Assembly (NCBI GenBank): GCA_963662465.1
Contig: OY759599.1
Coordinates: 320,001-384,000 of the forward strand
From: Desulfatiglandales bacterium
Lineage (GTDB): Bacteria > Desulfobacterota > DSM-4660 > Desulfatiglandales > Desulfatiglandaceae
DNA length: 64,000 bases
Reading direction: 5' to 3'
The notes under the pieces: model-generated
What the model saw: the letters and a program-made list of their open reading frames with translations, nothing else
The model's database searches: none
Told to the model about the DNA's origin: nothing
In this document: positions 40,452 through 47,800 of the stretch, piece by piece
How positions within the stretch are numbered: position 1 is the stretch's first letter
Layout: the number at the start of each line of letters is the position of its first letter
Program-made: the position numbers and the translations under genes

Positions 40452-41253
40452 GTTCTGAGCTGGCATAAAAAAGGGCAGATAGTAGCTGCTACCCCCCTTG
40501 ACCTACCGCAATGGCCTATACCTGCCCCGGCGATGGGCCTTGCTACGCCTGGCTGGCTCCGGTACCAGGTAGCAATCTTGTTATGCTTCTTTTGACCTAA
40601 GACTAACGCTCGATCTGGTTACCCTATTCCACTCTGGAATAATCTAAATTACGCAAATAATGCAGCTTATCATCTACGTCAAGAGTGTTTAATTTGCGTT
40701 TTTGCTCCGGGTCTAACTTACATTTCGCACTAAAAAACCAAGTTTTCAGGGTTTAATGTGTGAAGCGGCCAAAGGGGCAACTTCACAAATAATAGGAGGA
40801 AAAGATTGTCCCGGACAGGGTCAAATTCATGTGCTATGTATATAACACATGAGGCTTGCAAAATTGATGGAAAATAATGTTGTTAAGCGATAAATAAGAT
40901 ATAGTTCCATCCTTTGACTATATTATTACGCCTCATAAAAGTGAACAGGGAGGCGTTATGGAGCAATTTGAAACACGGTTCAAACGAGTCGACTTGGGCG
41001 CTAACCAAAATGGAACCAGTTTTGCTACTCCAAACGGAACCAGATATTGCGCACTGGTCTTTTCCTTTTAGAAGGGTTTTCTTGTAAATTTGTTAGAGGT
41101 TGCATGAAAGAGTATATCAGATGGTATTTTAAAAATGCTGGTGAGACACGTAGCGTTCTGGTTGAAGAATCAGTGATGAGGATACCATCAATATGGTGAT
41201 GGCAGAGAAGAGGGGATTAGATTTTTCGGTTAAGGGCAATGCTTATTGAGGAA

Positions 41254-41451
41254 CTATTTGTCTATGTCATAGTCGTCCGGTAAATTCAGGAGGCCTCCCT
41301 TCGCCAATTGATCCTCAATCAAATATCCAATTTCCCCGTTTTTTTTCAGCTGTAGAATCATCCATTTGGGGAGACGAATGGTGAGCAGTTCACGTCTCAA
41401 ATGTTCCGGTTTCTTTCTTCGGCCGGCGCCTACCCGTTTTCCACCTCTCAT
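41254..41451 (-). CDS. Small DNA-binding protein (RGGxRxGAGR plus RHH-like TIRLP)
   Basis: MRGGKRVGAGRRKK...TIRLPKW. Confidence 0.6.
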   Translation of the reverse strand: MRGGKRVGAGRRKKPEHLRRELLTIRLPKWMILQLKKNGEIGYLIEDQLAKGGLLNLPDDYDIDK

Positions 41452-41492
41452 TTCAAGCTCCGAGACAAGGTAATTTCTGATATTCGTGTAAC

Positions 41493-41538
41493 GAGATTCA
41501 AACAGACCGGTGAGATTCAAACAGACCGGTGATATTCA
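41493..41538. repeat. 19-bp tandem repeat downstream of istB
   Basis: GAGATTCAAACAGACCGGT twice plus partial GATATTCA. Confidence 0.85.
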
Positions 41539-41568
41539 GACCTCAAAACCGGCCCTTTGGCGAACATC

Positions 41569-42288
41569 TCATTTTCTGAGGGAAGGACCATCAATATGAA
41601 TGTTGATGCAGCGATGGTTGAGACGATCCAGCAAGGCATCGACCATGTCCTTTGGTTCAAGCAGCGAATACCATTGTTCAGGTTGAAGATTGGTCGTAAT
41701 AATTGTGGACCGACCGGCTTCATAGCGATCTTTCATGAGTTTAAAAAAGGCGTTCATCTGCTCTTTTTTGAGGGTCAGGTATCCCAGTTCATCGAGCAGA
41801 AGCAGGTCATATCTGCAAAGGGCATTGAGGAGTTTCGGGGTGGACCGATCTGCCAAAGACGCATAGAGCTGATCCAGCAAATCCTGAACATTATAAAAAC
41901 GCCCCCGGTACCCGGCAATAATGGCTTGACGAAGGATCCCCACGGCCAATCCCGTTTTGCCGACGCCGGTTTTTCCATGGAACACGATGTTTTCTCTTCG
42001 GCTGATAAAGTCAAGGCCGGACAACGTCATGATCCGGCTCTTCTGTATTCCCGGCTGAAGATCAAACGGAAAGGAGTTGAGGGTCCATTCCCATGGAAGC
42101 TTTGCAATCTGGACCCGATAGATCATGCTGCGCTCCTGCCGGAAACGTAATTCCTCAGCCAGGAGATTGTAGATGACCTCGTGAATGGAAAAACCGTTCT
42201 TTTCAGCCGAAGCCAACTGTTCTTCGAGAGCCTTCAGCATGCCTTTAAACTTCAAATCAATGAGTAACTGTTCAATTTTCTTTTTCAT
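41569..42288 (-). CDS. istB: IS21-family AAA+ helper ATPase
   Basis: GKTGVGKT, LLLLDELGY, STIITTN, ALLDRL.H, GPSLR. Confidence 0.95.
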   Translation of the reverse strand: MKKKIEQLLIDLKFKGMLKALEEQLASAEKNGFSIHEVIYNLLAEELRFRQERSMIYRVQIAKLPWEWTLNSFPFDLQPGIQKSRIMTLSGLDFISRRENIVFHGKTGVGKTGLAVGILRQAIIAGYRGRFYNVQDLLDQLYASLADRSTPKLLNALCRYDLLLLDELGYLTLKKEQMNAFFKLMKDRYEAGRSTIITTNLQPEQWYSLLEPKDMVDALLDRLNHRCINIHIDGPSLRK

Positions 42289-43667
42289 AGATCAAAAAAG
42301 TCTCCCGCGATATAATCGAGAATAATGTTTTCCAGACGCGACAAATCAAAAAGTCCATATTTAAGCGCCTGTGTTATGGCTTTCAAAAAAGGTTCCCCGG
42401 GATAAGTGCGTTTCAGATGAAGCAACCGACGTAACTTGACCACACCGCGACCGTGACTTCTTTTCTTCAGTTCAGCCACATACTCATCCAGGATGGCATC
42501 CTCTCCCGTCAACAGCTGTTCTTCTTTTGAAGGGATTCGGGGATCTTTTTTTCTTCGAATGGGAACATGGTGACCGGGCAGGGTTGTTCGGGTGTTGCGT
42601 TTATCCAGTATGCGGTCATGTTCCGCCACTTTTGTGTTTTTGTCGTAAACGATGACCTTGAGCCAATGTTTCTGTACTTCCAGGGAGTTCCCAATCAGCG
42701 CTTCAGGGACTGAATAGCGGTTGGTGTCCAAGTGCACATATCCCTGAACATCGGCTACCCTGTGTTCTGCCACATAGACTGGCGGCTGGTATGCCGGTAA
42801 ATCAATGAGATATGGCTTTTCAATGACATAGGCCTCATCCGGCGTCATCCCTAAAGCCCGTTTAAACTTTTTATCGCTTGTATTCCGGCACCAGTCGATT
42901 GCCTGCCGGTTCAAATCCTGCCAGCTAACAAATGTTCTACCGGGAAGAAAATTGTTTTCCACAAAATGAAAAGGCCTTTCCACACGGGCACTTCGATTGG
43001 CGTCTCCTACAGCATGGGCCTCAAACCGGGTTCCATACATATCGCCGAAGTATTTCATTTCAGGCGCAATCAATGCATCAGGCCCGGTGCCGCCGGCCAC
43101 AATAACATTGGTGTTGTCAACCATGCACCGGGAACACACCCCGTCCATAAACTCGAATGCTTTTTTTAGGAAAACCTTGCACTCAAACCGGGTAAAACAG
43201 GGGTAATACTGAATAAAAATCCTTCGGCAAAAGGCCAGGGTCAGGGACGCGCACTGGGTCGACATTTTTTTCCCATTAATGACAACCAGATGGGGTGACG
43301 TATCATGCTGCATCTCCTGACCGGGTTTAAAATGGTATTGGCCCGCCCGTCTTTTTTTACGTTCCCGGATCTCGTACTTTCTCATAATCCAGGTCAGACT
43401 CTGATAAGGGATTTTGATCTGTTGGCGGCTTTCCAGTTCCTCGGCTACTCGCACGGCATTTCCTTTACATTCCTTGAAAAGCTCGCGGATCAACGGGACA
43501 TGTTCTTCATACCGGGAGTTCCTTTGGGGTACCGCCTCTTCGTCATGATCATCTAAAACCTTCGTGACGGTATTGCGACCGGCCTTCAGGGTTTTGGCGA
43601 TGTCGCGCAAACTCATGCCGGTTTTTTTCAATTCCACAATGGCATCTTTTTTGGATTGTCGGATCAT
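42285..43667 (-). CDS. istA: IS21-family DDE transposase
   Basis: N-terminal HTH, PGQEMQHD, VDN, RVERPF, NRYSVP; ATGA-coupled to istB. Confidence 0.93.
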   Translation of the reverse strand: MIRQSKKDAIVELKKTGMSLRDIAKTLKAGRNTVTKVLDDHDEEAVPQRNSRYEEHVPLIRELFKECKGNAVRVAEELESRQQIKIPYQSLTWIMRKYEIRERKKRRAGQYHFKPGQEMQHDTSPHLVVINGKKMSTQCASLTLAFCRRIFIQYYPCFTRFECKVFLKKAFEFMDGVCSRCMVDNTNVIVAGGTGPDALIAPEMKYFGDMYGTRFEAHAVGDANRSARVERPFHFVENNFLPGRTFVSWQDLNRQAIDWCRNTSDKKFKRALGMTPDEAYVIEKPYLIDLPAYQPPVYVAEHRVADVQGYVHLDTNRYSVPEALIGNSLEVQKHWLKVIVYDKNTKVAEHDRILDKRNTRTTLPGHHVPIRRKKDPRIPSKEEQLLTGEDAILDEYVAELKKRSHGRGVVKLRRLLHLKRTYPGEPFLKAITQALKYGLFDLSRLENIILDYIAGDFFDL

Positions 43668-44548
43668 AATTGGGTCGCTTTCTTGAGTTCCAGTGCTTGT
43701 TTTTCTATCTTTTTCACCCAGGTTTTGAGCGTTTGTTTCTTCAACTGATCGCTTTTTGGGTAATGGACATGCGAAACGGTTTTCACCAGACGTTTGAGAA
43801 CCGCATATACCATTTCAATATCCTTGAACCATTTGCCTTCCGGTCCATCATGAACTTCTTTGGCTTGTTTAGACTGGGTTCTTTGTTCGAGAACTTTTAT
43901 GAAAAGGGATGGATTTTCCAGCATGTGGTCTCGAACAGACCGGTTGCTTTTCTGGTAATGTGCGTAGAAACGGGCCAGTTCCCTTGTGGATAGAGGTTCT
44001 TTTTCCAGGTGGGCCAACAGTTTTTGTGCGTCTTCACCGTTGGCGCGCGCCAACGGCGCCATGACACGGCTGGCAGCCCAGGTTGAAAGTGAGCCTGCAA
44101 TCACGGTTCTCAAAATATTTTCCGGCAGGGCTTCAACCAGGTCCAGCCGCCGTTTTACAAAACTCTTGTCGCGCCCTATTCGGGTTGCAATATGGGAGAG
44201 GCTGCACCCAAAACGCCGATGTAATTCCTGAAGTAAAACAGACTGCTCAATGACTTCCCATTGCCGTTCATTGGCCTTGGTTAAAAGCGAAAACATGGCA
44301 TTTTGTTCGTTTTCTTTTGAGAATTGGACACATATCCGGTCCTTTCCACAAGCACAAAGCGCTCGAACACGCAGGTAGCCATCAATCAGAATCAGTTTGT
44401 CTTTTTCTTCAATAGCCAGGGCCGGAACGATCTGCCCGTAAGTTTCGATGGAATCCCTCAATCGCTTTAAAGCCTGGTGATTCATTATCCGGCAATGAGC
44501 GTAACGCAACTCCAGCAAATGAATATCAACGGTTCGGATGGATTCCAT
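43664..44548 (-). CDS. ParB/RepB/Spo0J-family protein
   Basis: LRDSIETYGQIVP, LIDGYLRVRA, HTH IATRIGRDKSFVKRRL; ATGA-coupled to istA. Confidence 0.88.
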   Translation of the reverse strand: MESIRTVDIHLLELRYAHCRIMNHQALKRLRDSIETYGQIVPALAIEEKDKLILIDGYLRVRALCACGKDRICVQFSKENEQNAMFSLLTKANERQWEVIEQSVLLQELHRRFGCSLSHIATRIGRDKSFVKRRLDLVEALPENILRTVIAGSLSTWAASRVMAPLARANGEDAQKLLAHLEKEPLSTRELARFYAHYQKSNRSVRDHMLENPSLFIKVLEQRTQSKQAKEVHDGPEGKWFKDIEMVYAVLKRLVKTVSHVHYPKSDQLKKQTLKTWVKKIEKQALELKKATQL

Positions 44549-44945
44549 ACCCAGTCTCCCGAAAGATTTCCTCTATGGTTTCTCCAAGACTGACCCAATT
44601 TCCTTGCCGGATCTCCTTTACCTGTTTCACAATCACAGGACGTCTGGGAAGCGAAAGAACCTGAAACAGACGGCCATCAAACCCAATCAGATCCTTGTCC
44701 AACAAGCCATCGCGGGCATCGATATATTGATCCAAATGCACCTTTAAAATCCGGCAGATTCTGTCGTAACCATAATAAGAGAGCCCGTTTTTGTCAGATA
44801 CCAACACCAGAAAAATGTAGAGCAGCAGCTCATGATGATTCAGGCTCTCCCAAAAGCCGTTTCTCAAAAAACGATGCTCCAGAAAGCCGAAGCTTCCATT
44901 GATGACACGCACTCTTTCGGGAAAAAGGACTCTTTTTTTGATCAT
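44526..44945 (-). CDS. Winged-helix-like accessory protein
   Basis: LLLYIFLVLVSDKNGLSYYGYDRICRIL; overlaps the parB start. Confidence 0.72.
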   Translation of the reverse strand: MIKKRVLFPERVRVINGSFGFLEHRFLRNGFWESLNHHELLLYIFLVLVSDKNGLSYYGYDRICRILKVHLDQYIDARDGLLDKDLIGFDGRLFQVLSLPRRPVIVKQVKEIRQGNWVSLGETIEEIFRETGYGIHPNR

Positions 44946-44957
44946 TTTTTTCTCCTG

Positions 44958-45377
44958 TCATGGATATGGGGTTTTCTCAAAGCCTGTTACATCTGAAAAA
45001 ACCCTCCCTGCATAAGCACGGCGAGGAAAATGGTCCACAACAACCCCGATCGACCCGCAAAAAAGACAGCTGGGTCGGTTCCCCGACCGCTTTTTGGGTT
45101 CAATATCACAGTCTTTTTGAGGTGTTGAACTATCATCACCAGGGTTCAGTCCATTTTTTTTGGATTTTTTTGTTTTTTCGTACAAACGACGGCGCTCTTT
45201 CCCTTTTTTCGAATTGCGGTATTTCCCCTGAGCTTTCCGGTGCAGCTGTCTTTGGCGTATCCTGCGACATCGTTCCCCACAATAGGCCTGGCCACGCCAA
45301 CACGACCGACAGACGTGAAAAAAGCAACCACAACATCGGCATTGAACCACTCTTAAAAGGACATCTCCCATCATTCC
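44958..45377 (-). CDS. Cys- and Arg-rich zinc-finger-like accessory protein
   Basis: CRCCGCFFHVCRSCWRGQAYCGERC, basic helix, C-terminal CLFCG. Confidence 0.7.
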   Translation of the reverse strand, partial: GMMGDVLLRVVQCRCCGCFFHVCRSCWRGQAYCGERCRRIRQRQLHRKAQGKYRNSKKGKERRRLYEKTKKSKKNGLNPGDDSSTPQKDCDIEPKKRSGNRPSCLFCGSIGVVVDHFPRRAYAGRVFSDVTGFEKTPYP

Positions 45378-45450
45378 GGCCTTGCAATTGGCCGGAAACA
45401 CACTTATATAAAATTGGCGTGTGTGTGGCTTCCGGCTCTATCCGGTGGTC

Positions 45451-45486
45451 AAAAAAGAAGGCCCGAAGCGGCTACTTCGGGCCTTC
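45451..45486 (-). terminator. Terminator-like hairpin upstream of the transposon operon
   Basis: GAAGGCCCGAAG-tagccg-CTTCGGGCCTTC followed by a T run on the minus strand. Confidence 0.7.
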
Positions 45487-47800
45487 ACCATCCATTCTAC
45501 AAAGTAAATCGCATTTCCACTTAACCAAGCCTCTGTCTTGGAAGAAGAAAACCAAATCCAAAGAAAATAGATTTTATAAAAATTTATTGAAAAGTAAATC
45601 TACATCAACGACTCCTTTGCCGCCACTTATGGATCCCTCATCGTCCGCTATACCTGAGGGCCGTACTCACTGGCGGTGACAGTCAATGGTTCAATTTCCA
45701 TTAGCAAACTTGGTTCAGTTTTGATTAGCGTTGAAGGAGTCGATGTATTCCCAATGGTCAAGCATTTTATGGATAAGCTTGATCTGTTCAATCTCTTTAC
45801 AAAGTATGTTCCGGCAGCACCCGATAGTCTCGCGAATCATGCTGAAAGCCTGTGCATATTAACAGCAAATATCATATGCGAGAACAAGCCACTTTACAAG
45901 ATTCAAGAGTGGTTGAGCCAATATTCCGATGGTCTTGTCGAAATGCCACTGGCGGCAAACCTTTTTAATGACGATCGACTTGCCAGGTCCCTTTCGGCGC
46001 TTTTTCGTTCAGACCGCAATTCGTTAATGACCGATGTGTCCGGAAACGCTATTTCTGTTCATAAATTGCTTACAGATGAAATTCATAATGACAGCACAAC
46101 GGTGACATTCATTGATAAATATGATAGCCCCGATTTGGAAGCGGTCAAGCTTAAACATGGGTACAACAAGGATTTCCGGCCTGACTGCAAACAGGTCGTA
46201 TTTGGTCTGAATATCACAGCAGATGGCCATGTTCCGCTGAGCTATAAACTTTTTGACGGCAATACCCCTGATGATGTCACGCATATACCGAACTGGAACG
46301 CTCTTCGTGCATTATTGGAAAAAGAAGATTTTATTTATGTTGCCGATTGCAAGCTGTGCAGCCAAAAGAATTTAAACCATATTGCAGAAAATGGTGGTTT
46401 TTTTATTACAATCGTCCCGAAGGATCGAAAAGAAGTTAAACGTTTCTTAAAGTATCTGAAAAAAAACGATGTAACATGGAAAGACGCTTTTAGCATTGAA
46501 AACTCACGGAAAAAAGGTGAGCTGAACATCTACAAAACATATGAGGCCGAACTAACAAAAAAAGGATACCGAATCATTTTTGTTCACAGCAGCCTAAAAC
46601 AGAAAGAGGATGAAGAAAGAAGACAAAAGAAAATAGAGAATGCAATTGGGAAATTAGAGCAGTTATCACCGAAACTAAATGCGTATCATTTAAAAACCAA
46701 AAAAGAGATCAAAGCAGCCATTGATAATATTTGCAAGGAAATTAAAGGGTTAGTCGATGTTGAGATATTGACTGAGCGCAAACAGGTTAGGGTGAAGGTA
46801 TCTCCCGGTAGGCCTTCCTTCGAAAGCGCCTACAAAAACAAATGGGAATTTACGTACAGCATTCAATGGAAATTAAACGAACAAACCATCGCCGAAACGT
46901 CAAAAACGGATGGGATTTTTCCGTTGATCACCAATACCAAACTTGAAGCCAGCGAAGTATTAGGAAAATATAAAAAGCAATCGTTCCTTGAAAAGCGTAT
47001 GTACACCAAAAAGACTGTTCTGGAAGTAGCCCCTGTTTTCCTAAAGAAGGAAAAGCGCATTGAAGCCATGCTCTTTCTATATTTTGTGGCATTAATGATA
47101 GTATCTTTTATCGAACGAAAAATACGCATGAATATGGCAAACGAAAACATAGAAAAATTGCCGATTTTGCCTCAGGGAATGAATACAAAAAAACCGACAT
47201 GGAACAACATCCGGTACTTCTTTCGGAATGTCCACTACTCGCAGATAGTTCGCGATGGAGTATGCATACAATCAGTAGTGAAAGGACTTAGATTCTTGCA
47301 TGAACAAATTAATCGGCTATTAGAAATCCCAGACACGATATATAAAAACCTCCAGGATGGTTGGTGGCAGTTTCAACATAATTGATCAGAATTTTTTTCG
47401 GAGATATTCAAGAAATATTTTCTGAGCGTGCGAAATGTAAGGTCTAATCTTGGATTATTGATTTTTATATTGTTTTTTTTACGGTTAATCAGTTGGTTGC
47501 GTAAACGCTGCTCCGCCGTTTCCTGGTATGGTGTTTCATATATGGATTTCATGATTTTTCTCCGCGCAAAGTGAAGTGTTGAAATAAATTGTAAAACGCA
47601 ATAGTTGTGCTTTGATAAGATTGCTTAACGCCATCGCCATCTTGGAGCGTGTAAATACAAGATATGGAATCAAGTTGATGGTAATAAATCAATGTAAAGT
47701 TTGGGTTCATTTTCTCAGTGTGAAAACGCAATAATTGTTTTGGAATCTTTAATTATATCAATATGTTTAGATACCTGTTTGAAAAAGAGCCGTATATTCT

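Follow-up and report, generated by a model that had tools for sequence, protein, structure and literature searches.

The stretch analysed here, referred to as the window, comprises 64,000 nucleotides (nt) from a Desulfatiglandales bacterium (GenBank assembly GCA_963662465.1, contig OY759599.1, positions 320,001 to 384,000). At positions 40993-45736 it carries what is, with near certainty, a complete insertion sequence (IS) of the IS21 family that has recently expanded and is active. In addition to the transposase gene istA and the helper gene istB, the operon of this element holds genes for a zinc (Zn)-ribbon protein, a winged-helix protein, a ParB-like protein and a small basic protein. We consider it secure that the Zn-ribbon and ParB-family proteins are fixed, selected and vertically inherited parts of this branch of the IS21 family.

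The left end of the element, at 40993, reads CTTGGGCG... and the right end, at 45736, reads ...CGTTGAAG. The element and its insertion site are composed as follows.

40993..45736, minus strand: complete IS21-family element of 4744 bp, with the same termini in 21 full-length genomic copies
40986..40992, no strand: target-site duplication GAGTCGA, left copy
45737..45743, no strand: target-site duplication GAGTCGA, right copy
45686..45736, minus strand: upstream terminal inverted repeat, with two repeats of ~19 nt, 24 nt apart, conserved in relatives
40993..41043, minus strand: downstream terminal inverted repeat, with two repeats of ~19 nt, 24 nt apart
45737..47385, plus strand: IS1634-family transposase, the host gene cut by the element, with its first 35 bases at 40958-40992

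The ~19-nt repeats are direct within each end, one pair per end, and no additional internal copies of the motif were detected in the element at up to 5 mismatches, only the four terminal positions. An imperfect inverted repeat of 44 nt (40999-41042 and 45687-45730; 77% complementary) can also be observed. The initial annotation, made from the sequence alone, had described a single mobile unit with the 7-bp duplication GAGTCGA and ends CTT...AAG, whose removal restores the frame of a host transposase. These observations were borne out, as the duplication is found on both sides and the ends are the same in all 21 copies. The interrupted gene starts with an 11-residue protein start encoded at 40958-40992, and the plus-strand open reading frame (ORF) ending at 47385 matches the IS1634-family transposase NF033559 (E 4.7e-73). 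In silico excision of the element together with one copy of the duplication produced a spanning open frame of 529 amino acids (aa). Additionally, contigs were compared from four runs of a single metatranscriptomic study, whose libraries can contain DNA. A contig of run X4 fuses position 40985 to 45737, skipping 4751 bases, so that the empty site must be present elsewhere.

All six genes of the element lie on the minus strand, and their ORFs are packed closely between 45401 and 41254. In the direction of transcription, they are as follows.

44958..45401, minus strand: Zn-ribbon protein of 147 aa; eight Cys are invariant (CxxC-x6-CxxC-x6-C-x3-C ... CxxC), and an FPRR motif lies near the C-terminus
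44526..44945, minus strand: winged-helix protein, 139 aa, HTH_36-like (PF13730 23.3 bits, below the cut-off of 25)
43664..44548, minus strand: ParB-like protein, 294 aa, with a divergent ParB N-domain, a ParB helix-turn-helix (HTH) domain and a family-specific C-terminal region
42285..43667, minus strand: IstA DDE transposase, 460 aa (NF033546 129 bits, below the cut-off of 160)
41569..42288, minus strand: IstB AAA+ helper ATPase, 239 aa (PF01695 E 3.5e-59)
41254..41520, minus strand: small basic protein, listed ORF of 88 aa, with a conserved core of ~65 aa from an internal Met (41254-41451)

This gene order is the one initially annotated, and the ATGA overlaps at the parB/istA and istA/istB junctions were read directly in the sequence. 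The winged-helix gene likewise runs into parB, with 23 nt in common.

The match of IstA to NF033546 (E 1.9e-37) remains under the curated cut-off. A profile of 26 IstA members, however, matches the IstA of IS5376 (8b4h, E 5e-30) with all three catalytic columns (D, D and E) in register, and the residues D122, D184 and E230 are invariant in the 26 sequences. A conserved C-terminal extension of ~100 residues lies beyond the coverage of the IS5376 IstA. The protein is a divergent IS21 transposase. IstB scores 225 bits against NF038214, above the cut-off of 200, and matches the IS5376 IstB structure 8q3w (E 2.7e-34); its prediction as the IS21 helper ATPase is unambiguous. Canonical IS21 elements have two genes only, and their termini are usually 5'-TG...CA. 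Since these traits are usual and not defining, the CTT...AAG ends and the extra genes of the present element are taken as variation, and its membership in the IS21 family stands.

The host genome is a single contig of 8.16 Mb, in which the 21 full-length copies share identical ends CTTGGG...TTGAAG; partial or interrupted copies are also found. Nineteen of the full-length copies have 4725 bp and two have 4744 bp, the shorter ones being without one unit of the following duplication.

41493..41530, no strand: 19-nt tandem duplication carried by 2 of the 21 copies and located upstream of the small gene's conserved core

In the RNA-library contigs assembled from runs X1 and X2, this duplication is likewise missing. 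Each of the six ORFs is intact in all 21 copies, and the variation across the copies amounts to only 17 single-nucleotide polymorphism columns, which points to a recent burst. Flanking duplications were identified for 17 of the 21 copies (5 bp in one, 6 bp in one, 7 bp in eight and 8 bp in seven). The four copies with none start at G000:C1 positions 3972926, 4239691, 5347739 and 5892000; a comparison of their flanks by eye for reciprocal exchange yielded no matching pairs, and at these places the element may have produced deletions or inversions. Near-identical sequence in the RNA-library contigs spans most of the element, and contigs of three runs exit it at 45736 into three different flanks. 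Because DNA may occur in such libraries, these contigs are taken as evidence for the presence and mobility of the element and not for its expression.

In order to follow the extra genes through related elements, we analyzed loci fetched with the ParB-like protein. A ParB-led scan of species-representative genomes yielded 68 loci, many of which are copies in strain NaphS2 with 84-86% identity; 100%-identical copies were found in three metagenome-assembled genomes (MAGs), and relatives with 44-56% identity in Desulfobulbaceae and others. A profile scan of metagenomes, which covered 600 candidate stretches, gave at least 508 relatives; 80 of these were retained. Altogether, 96 loci were annotated with custom hidden Markov models, namely 16 genome loci (one per lineage) and the 80 metagenome loci. 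As all of them were fetched with ParB, the following counts describe the linkage of ParB and not the share of IstAs that have a ParB. Where 400 nt or more were available beyond ParB, IstA comes directly after it in 73 of 76 loci, L084, L147 and L164 being different, and IstB then follows in 54 of 58. Upstream of ParB, a Zn-ribbon ORF is present in at least 73 of 85 loci, 15 of type 1, which is that of the window, and 58 of type 2. The two types share only their N-terminal Cys pattern (hhalign probability 73%, E 3e-5), and other Cys-rich ORFs occupy the same position in two inspected loci of the 12 remaining ones. The ParB-IstA-IstB linkage persists down to ~42% ParB identity, and for this reason the extra genes are not regarded as cargo.

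An independent search was led by IstA in 400 other genomes of the phylum. By the initial annotation's own criterion, its proposal would fail if most close istAB homologs were devoid of the accessory genes; instead, all three loci with an IstA of at least 50% identity (in G109, G318 and G206) have a ParB upstream. Two further loci with 31% IstA identity (L204 and L208) have a more distant ParB, and a locus with 32% identity (L188) begins at a contig end, with its upstream side cut off. In a tree of 71 non-redundant IstAs, the ParB-linked sequences form one clade of 56 rows (55 with ParB, plus L188) with an SH-aLRT support of 99. An IstA from a locus without ParB (L189) is the sister of this clade, and the canonical IS21 of an E. 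coli plasmid and other two-gene elements are placed on the opposite side. One ParB-labelled row, L025, is placed elsewhere in the tree; it belongs to a different IS21 that adjoins a ParB element.

The sequence distances of the proteins are closely correlated over 42 elements, with Mantel r values of 0.965 for ParB-IstA, 0.954 for ParB-IstB and 0.975 for IstA-IstB (p 0.001 each, in a test that is inflated by kinship), and no sign of swapping of ParB between elements is apparent. The ratios of non-synonymous to synonymous substitution rates (dN/dS) are 0.11-0.31 for ParB, 0.09-0.18 for IstA and 0.05-0.12 for IstB. The winged-helix gene has values of 0.07-0.30, the Zn-ribbon genes have 0.17-0.42, and the small gene has 0.17. 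The accessory genes, with values between 0.07 and 0.42, are under purifying selection. The ParB family as a whole comprises 498 clusters at 50% identity (E<=1e-30). As a separate observation, the ParB sequences of L013, L014 and L015, in MAGs labelled Desulfobacteraceae, Deltaproteobacteria and Desulfatiglandales, are 99.7-100% identical to that of the element; the reason is either that the element spread horizontally only very recently or that the genomes are close relatives or were wrongly binned.

The assignment of the ParB-like protein to the ParB family, already proposed in the initial annotation, is supported by PF17762 (ParB HTH), which it matches with 29.0 bits against a cut-off of 22.6; TIGR00180 gives 44 bits, under its cut-off of 58. 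Its nearest solved structure is the Myxococcus xanthus ParB 7bnr (E 3.5e-7). In an alignment of 22 family members, the invariant residues of the N-domain are Y16 (in L-R-Y-x-H-x-R), S33, G38-Q39, P42, D56-G57, R60 and E101, and the family's own conserved set includes LRY.H.R, SI..YGQ..P and E98/E101. When aligned to solved ParBs, the canonical G-E-R-R-x-R-A is replaced by G-Y-L-R-x-x-A. The family motif at this position is DGY(L/K)Rxxx, in which G57 and R60 are invariant, A63 is nearly so, E is changed to Y and the first R to L or K. The ENLQR box is not kept in this alignment to solved ParBs, and the C-terminal ~95 residues are family-specific. A pocket seems to be under selection. As GERRxRA is only partly kept and ENLQR does not align as such, the annotated function of a CTP (cytidine triphosphate)-dependent clamp is uncertain, and neither CTP use nor clamp behaviour can be assumed. 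Longer members of the family (338-509 aa) contain ParB-type domains only, and no fused transposase or Zn-ribbon domain was found in them.

The region upstream of the first gene contains two further features.

45571..45598, minus strand: promoter-like TTTACT-16-TAAAAT, a consensus match only, in a block conserved among relatives
45457..45486, minus strand: 13-bp GC-rich hairpin followed by a T-run, similar to an intrinsic terminator, between the promoter-like site and the first gene

Relatives with 64-91% ParB identity keep the terminal repeats, the promoter-like block and the hairpin in this region. The hairpin stem is invariant in six of six aligned relatives while its loop varies, and the upstream end begins with CTT in five of six aligned sequences, i.e. 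in those that reach it. The hairpin could serve as an attenuator of the element's own transcript or as an insulator against read-through from outside. An Rfam scan of positions 40900-45800 gave a single match, to Mu-gpT-DE, which at 20.7 bits (threshold 49; E 0.23) was taken as chance.

The upstream region and the Zn-ribbon gene have a common history. Between the window and L105, the Zn-ribbon proteins are only 40% identical (dS 1.39), whereas the winged-helix, ParB, IstA and IstB proteins are 83-94% identical (dS 0.22-0.32). Two groups of upstream non-coding forms can be distinguished, one with the window and L106 and the other with L016, L104, L108 and L109; the Zn-ribbon identity to the window is 87% for L106 and 42% for L016 and L109. 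This agreement between Zn-ribbon identity and upstream form, together with the lower identity of the Zn-ribbon protein, indicates that the upstream end and the Zn-ribbon gene (44958-45736 in the window) were exchanged as one module, by recombination between related elements.

From these data we infer the biochemical roles of the ParB-like, Zn-ribbon, winged-helix and small proteins. The best overall explanation, which we put forward tentatively and to which we assign slightly less than an even chance, is an IS21 subgroup in which ParB is a cofactor acting on the element's own DNA or transpososome and the Zn-ribbon protein is a regulator. The DDE transposase IstA and the AAA+ helper IstB would perform the chemistry as in IS21 and IS5376, with IstA binding the paired 19-nt terminal repeats, and integration would occur by staggered cuts that give rise to 5-8 bp duplications at essentially any sequence. 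ParB would be co-produced with IstA through the ATGA overlap and would act as a dimeric DNA-binding cofactor at sub-terminal or internal sites of the element's own DNA, helping to assemble or license the IstA/IstB transpososome; the chromosomal target would not be its choice. The fast-evolving Zn-ribbon protein would be an operator-binding regulator of the element, comparable to InsA of IS1. It is the coupling of ParB to IstA, and its co-divergence with IstA and IstB, that makes the element's own DNA or transpososome the most likely place of its action. Similarly, regulation is the most likely role of the Zn-ribbon protein because its gene was apparently swapped together with the promoter-bearing upstream end and travels with the leader terminator.

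Alternatively, ParB, the Zn-ribbon protein and the winged-helix protein might together be a pure transcriptional autorepressor or silencer that acts near the promoter, more strongly at higher copy number, with no role in the reaction itself. KorB of IncP plasmids is the model for such a function, and weak KorB-domain matches were obtained both for members of the ParB family and for the ParB of a second element type described below (type II), also among precomputed matches to PF08535. The location of these genes upstream of istA, beside the conserved promoter-like block and the leader terminator, would suit a repressor, as would the joint travel of the Zn-ribbon gene and the upstream region; moreover, 21 intact and near-identical copies that coexist in one genome call for some dampening. 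However, ParB is translationally coupled to IstA and co-diverges with IstA and IstB as tightly as these two do with each other, which counts against a repressor because a repressor must co-evolve with its operator only, and neither a motif scan nor the reading of the upstream alignment revealed a palindromic operator. We regard pure repression as possible, though on the doubtful side.

It is important to mention the points that weigh against a role of ParB as transposition cofactor and of the Zn-ribbon protein as regulator. The upstream position and the DNA-binding domains fit a pure repressor equally well. The synteny loci were fetched via ParB, and the independent IstA-led sample is small (three loci at or above 50% identity). 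In the same IstA-led search, no ParB was seen in L210 (32% IstA identity, one in-frame stop), and L189 (36% over residues 77-460) is without ParB. The IstA tree was obtained in a quick IQ-TREE run. The canonical boxes of the nucleotide pocket are altered in the ParB-like protein. No parS-like palindrome or ParB binding site was found in the element, where the four terminal repeats are the sole repeated motif; hairpins noticed on visual inspection of the window's upstream region are conserved in the closest relative but not beyond it. Finally, only 13 of 85 loci, in the sub-branch of the window, have the winged-helix gene, and the small gene, searched with a custom profile, was detected in 5 of 24. 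Given this patchy distribution, not every accessory gene can be essential; the winged-helix and small genes are optional and are additions of the element's own sub-branch.

The insertion sites of the 21 copies were analyzed with regard to a possible choice of targets. No common sequence or motif was found among the 17 reconstructed duplication-flanked sites in the host genome, and the guanine-plus-cytosine content of the flanks ranges from 0.32 to 0.59, compared with 0.495 for the genome. The copies are scattered around the whole chromosome in both orientations. In 8 of the 21, the DNA on either side is repetitive, belonging to other ISs, which may reflect merely tolerated sites in an IS-rich genome. 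The Tn7-style target-selection role that the initial annotation had suggested for ParB and its partners is not supported by these sites, as they are without consensus, scattered and on both strands.

A different function in the handling of targets, a Tn7/Mu-like variant of the initially suggested role that needs no sequence-specific sites, would be that ParB marks or captures DNA for IstB, either by loading at the ends and spreading into the flanks, which would confer target immunity, or by tethering target DNA. The ParB fold and the HTH domain are present, and AAA+ partners of DDE transposases are a known control point for immunity, a question that is described as open for IstB in PMC11208146. 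None of the 21 full copies is nested in another or lies within 20 kb of another, a weak indication, since chance would predict only an estimated ~1-2 such pairs. The absence of a target consensus at the 17 sites argues against this function, as does the fact that the GERR and ENLQR residues, which serve for CTP in solved ParBs, are not kept, and there is no evidence for spreading. Marking or capture of DNA by ParB is, in our estimation, distinctly unlikely.

The folds of the accessory proteins were also compared with known structures. The predicted model of the winged-helix protein has a predicted local distance difference test (pLDDT) score of 78 and a winged-helix fold. Foldseek gave weak matches to CRP-type domains and to the N-domains of staphylococcal plasmid initiators (E 0.015-0.04), and its profile had no match among Protein Data Bank (PDB) sequences at E<=1. 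With VIA-align, the best match was the staphylococcal plasmid initiator N-domain 4pta_D (Z 8.0, root-mean-square deviation 5.1, 92 aligned residues), followed by the N-domains of DnaB and DnaD (Z 7.3 and 6.4); Z values of this range are common by chance. For the Zn-ribbon protein, no Pfam or NCBIfam family was identified, and its neighbours in the Atlas are all unnamed. Its model (pLDDT 70) gave no fold match, the top Foldseek hit being YacG at E 4.7 and the top VIA-align hit (Z 4.4) covering a helical hairpin only, and a profile search of the PDB returned only ribosomal Zn-protein noise (E>0.4).

These initiator-like matches bear on another explanation, according to which the extra genes would be passengers, or what is left of a maintenance module of a plasmid or phage (a Rep-like winged helix plus ParB), and would serve the host or an extrachromosomal form of the element rather than transposition; in a variant, ParB would be a ParB/Srx nuclease that cuts the second strand. 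Sister elements with a DnaG-type zinc ribbon or with a fusion of IstA to a primase, described below, would be consistent with such an origin. This explanation is contradicted by the fixed position of the genes and their overlaps, by the single clade and the co-divergence, and by a purifying selection that extends across hundreds of lineages. Neither a ParA-like ORF (in the ORF list and a Pfam scan) nor replication origin features were seen in the element, the type I ParB is unmatched in 72,556 PLSDB plasmid records at E<=1e-8, and no nuclease motif was identified. We consider the passenger explanation, including its nuclease variant, highly unlikely.

The small gene downstream of istB had been annotated as encoding a small DNA-binding protein. 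The gene is real and conserved, but its core begins at an internal Met of the listed ORF, and DNA binding is putative. The core consists of a basic stretch, MRGGKR..GAGRKKK, followed by a short segment resembling a strand and a helix (TIRLP.WM), and no Pfam or NCBIfam match was found. The protein is spread over three different IS21 lineages within the host genome, namely in ParB type I (window, 41254-41451, minus strand), in ParB type II (L211:5383-5610) and in an IstA-primase element (L212:4197-4653), the last of which has two tandem copies between istA and istB. The small gene is missing from close relatives of 4400-4464 bp (L106 and NaphS2).

Several sister lineages of the element were observed. 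A second, distant type of ParB-IstA-IstB element (type II), with an IstA that is 31% identical, is found in the host genome itself (L211, G000:C1:8094669-8099109), at L204 and L208, and on plasmid pHRM2a (NC_012109.1; L213). In L211, L204 and pHRM2a, this type ends with a gene for a DnaG-type CHC2 zinc ribbon. The IstA-primase element of the host genome (L212, G000:C1:5957365-5961449) encodes an IstA of 901 aa with a C-terminal Toprim/primase-like region, in which Toprim domains are located at 785-865. A further group, found in other genomes (L190, L191, L194, L195, L197, L206, L216-L231 and L244), has the order type-2 Zn-ribbon, winged-helix, IstA and IstB, is devoid of ParB, and forms a separate IstA clade nearer to canonical IS21; the same arrangement is carried by Caballeronia plasmids, where it is annotated as "hypothetical protein". 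The winged-helix profile matched 26 of the 400 other genomes of the phylum, with IstA directly after it in 17 of 27 loci; counting only the loci with room, the figure is 17 of 24. The winged-helix family comprises at least 7988 clusters at 90% identity, and every listed cluster that has a source name bears either "hypothetical protein" or "conserved domain protein" as that name.

The known roles of the ParB family are in partition, nucleoid occlusion and silencing. A more far-reaching version of the cofactor idea would be that the ParB-family protein, possibly still as a nucleotide-gated clamp, was recruited as a third core subunit of the DDE/AAA+ machine, which loads at the ends of the element, marks "self" DNA or bridges both ends, and so gates IstB and IstA. 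The sister modules, with their weakly initiator-like winged helix, DnaG-type ribbon and IstA-primase fusion, would then point to an IS21 branch in which strand transfer is coupled to replication- or partition-like handling of DNA. We judge this version unlikely.

Whichever function applies, these elements represent a large natural branch of the IS21 family in which two to four extra predicted DNA-binding proteins are fixed in the operon, in contrast to the minimal two-protein view. If ParB acts in transposition, as we tentatively prefer, the element would be a tractable model in which a DNA binder of the partition type is built into a transposase system, as well as a handle on IS21 immunity and regulation. 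Public annotation misses such elements: in RefSeq, the IstA of the relative on pHRM2a is named only as "helix-turn-helix domain-containing protein" and its IstB as "ATP-binding protein", and accessory genes are "hypothetical".

IS21 has a length of 2131 bp, and the duplications of the IS21 family have 4-8 bp. The present element resembles IS21 and IS5376 in having a gene for a DDE transposase, IstA, followed by an overlapping gene for the AAA+ protein IstB, several short repeats per terminal inverted repeat, short duplications of variable length (here 5-8 bp) and no strong target consensus, and both its IstA and its IstB can be aligned with the solved proteins of IS5376. It differs from them in its length of 4.7 kb with three genes upstream and one downstream of istAB, in its CTT...AAG ends, in an IstA that with 129 bits stays under the IS21 cut-off of 160, and in the conserved C-terminal extension of ~100 residues. 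According to PMC11208146, IS21 serves as the current structural model of DDE transposase activation by an AAA+ ATPase and is treated as a minimal system of two proteins. We found no paper in the full-text literature (ISfinder, TnPedia and subscription journals being outside its scope) that links IS21 or IstAB with a ParB-like, Zn-ribbon or winged-helix accessory gene. A subgroup with Zn-ribbon and ParB genes upstream of istA-istB was not found described, and an earlier description in ISfinder or TnPedia may exist.

With Tn7, Tn5053 and Mu (TnsB-TnsC-TniQ/TnsD, TniA-TniB-TniQ and MuA-MuB), the element shares the combination of a DDE transposase, an AAA+ regulator and DNA-binding subunits in one operon, but it has no attachment site or other target specificity and is much smaller and free of cargo. 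The Zn-ribbon and winged-helix proteins had no Pfam match to TniQ or TnsD, and fold searches for such a likeness gave generic matches for the winged-helix protein and nothing for the Zn-ribbon protein. Compared with the clamps ParB, Spo0J, Noc and KorB, the ParB-like protein has the same succession of an N-terminal ParB/Srx-type domain and a ParB HTH domain, whereas its GERRxRA motif is altered, its ENLQR box is not kept and its C-terminal region is family-specific; moreover, its gene is located inside a transposase operon, with no ParA partner and no parS-like palindrome found. In the sister group without ParB, istA-istB is directly preceded by homologous genes for a winged-helix protein and a type-2 Zn-ribbon protein; the group differs in the absence of ParB and in an IstA of ~25% identity that belongs to another clade. 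ParB-like genes are also known from other mobile or DNA-targeting contexts, according to PMC8813620 and PMC12045711. One of them encodes TasParB, which is operonised with TIGR-TasA and whose function is given as unknown in PMC12045711. A ParB-like protein is there the conserved operon partner of a DNA-targeting system that is not devoted to partition, which sets a precedent, although the partner protein is unrelated and the system has no transposase.

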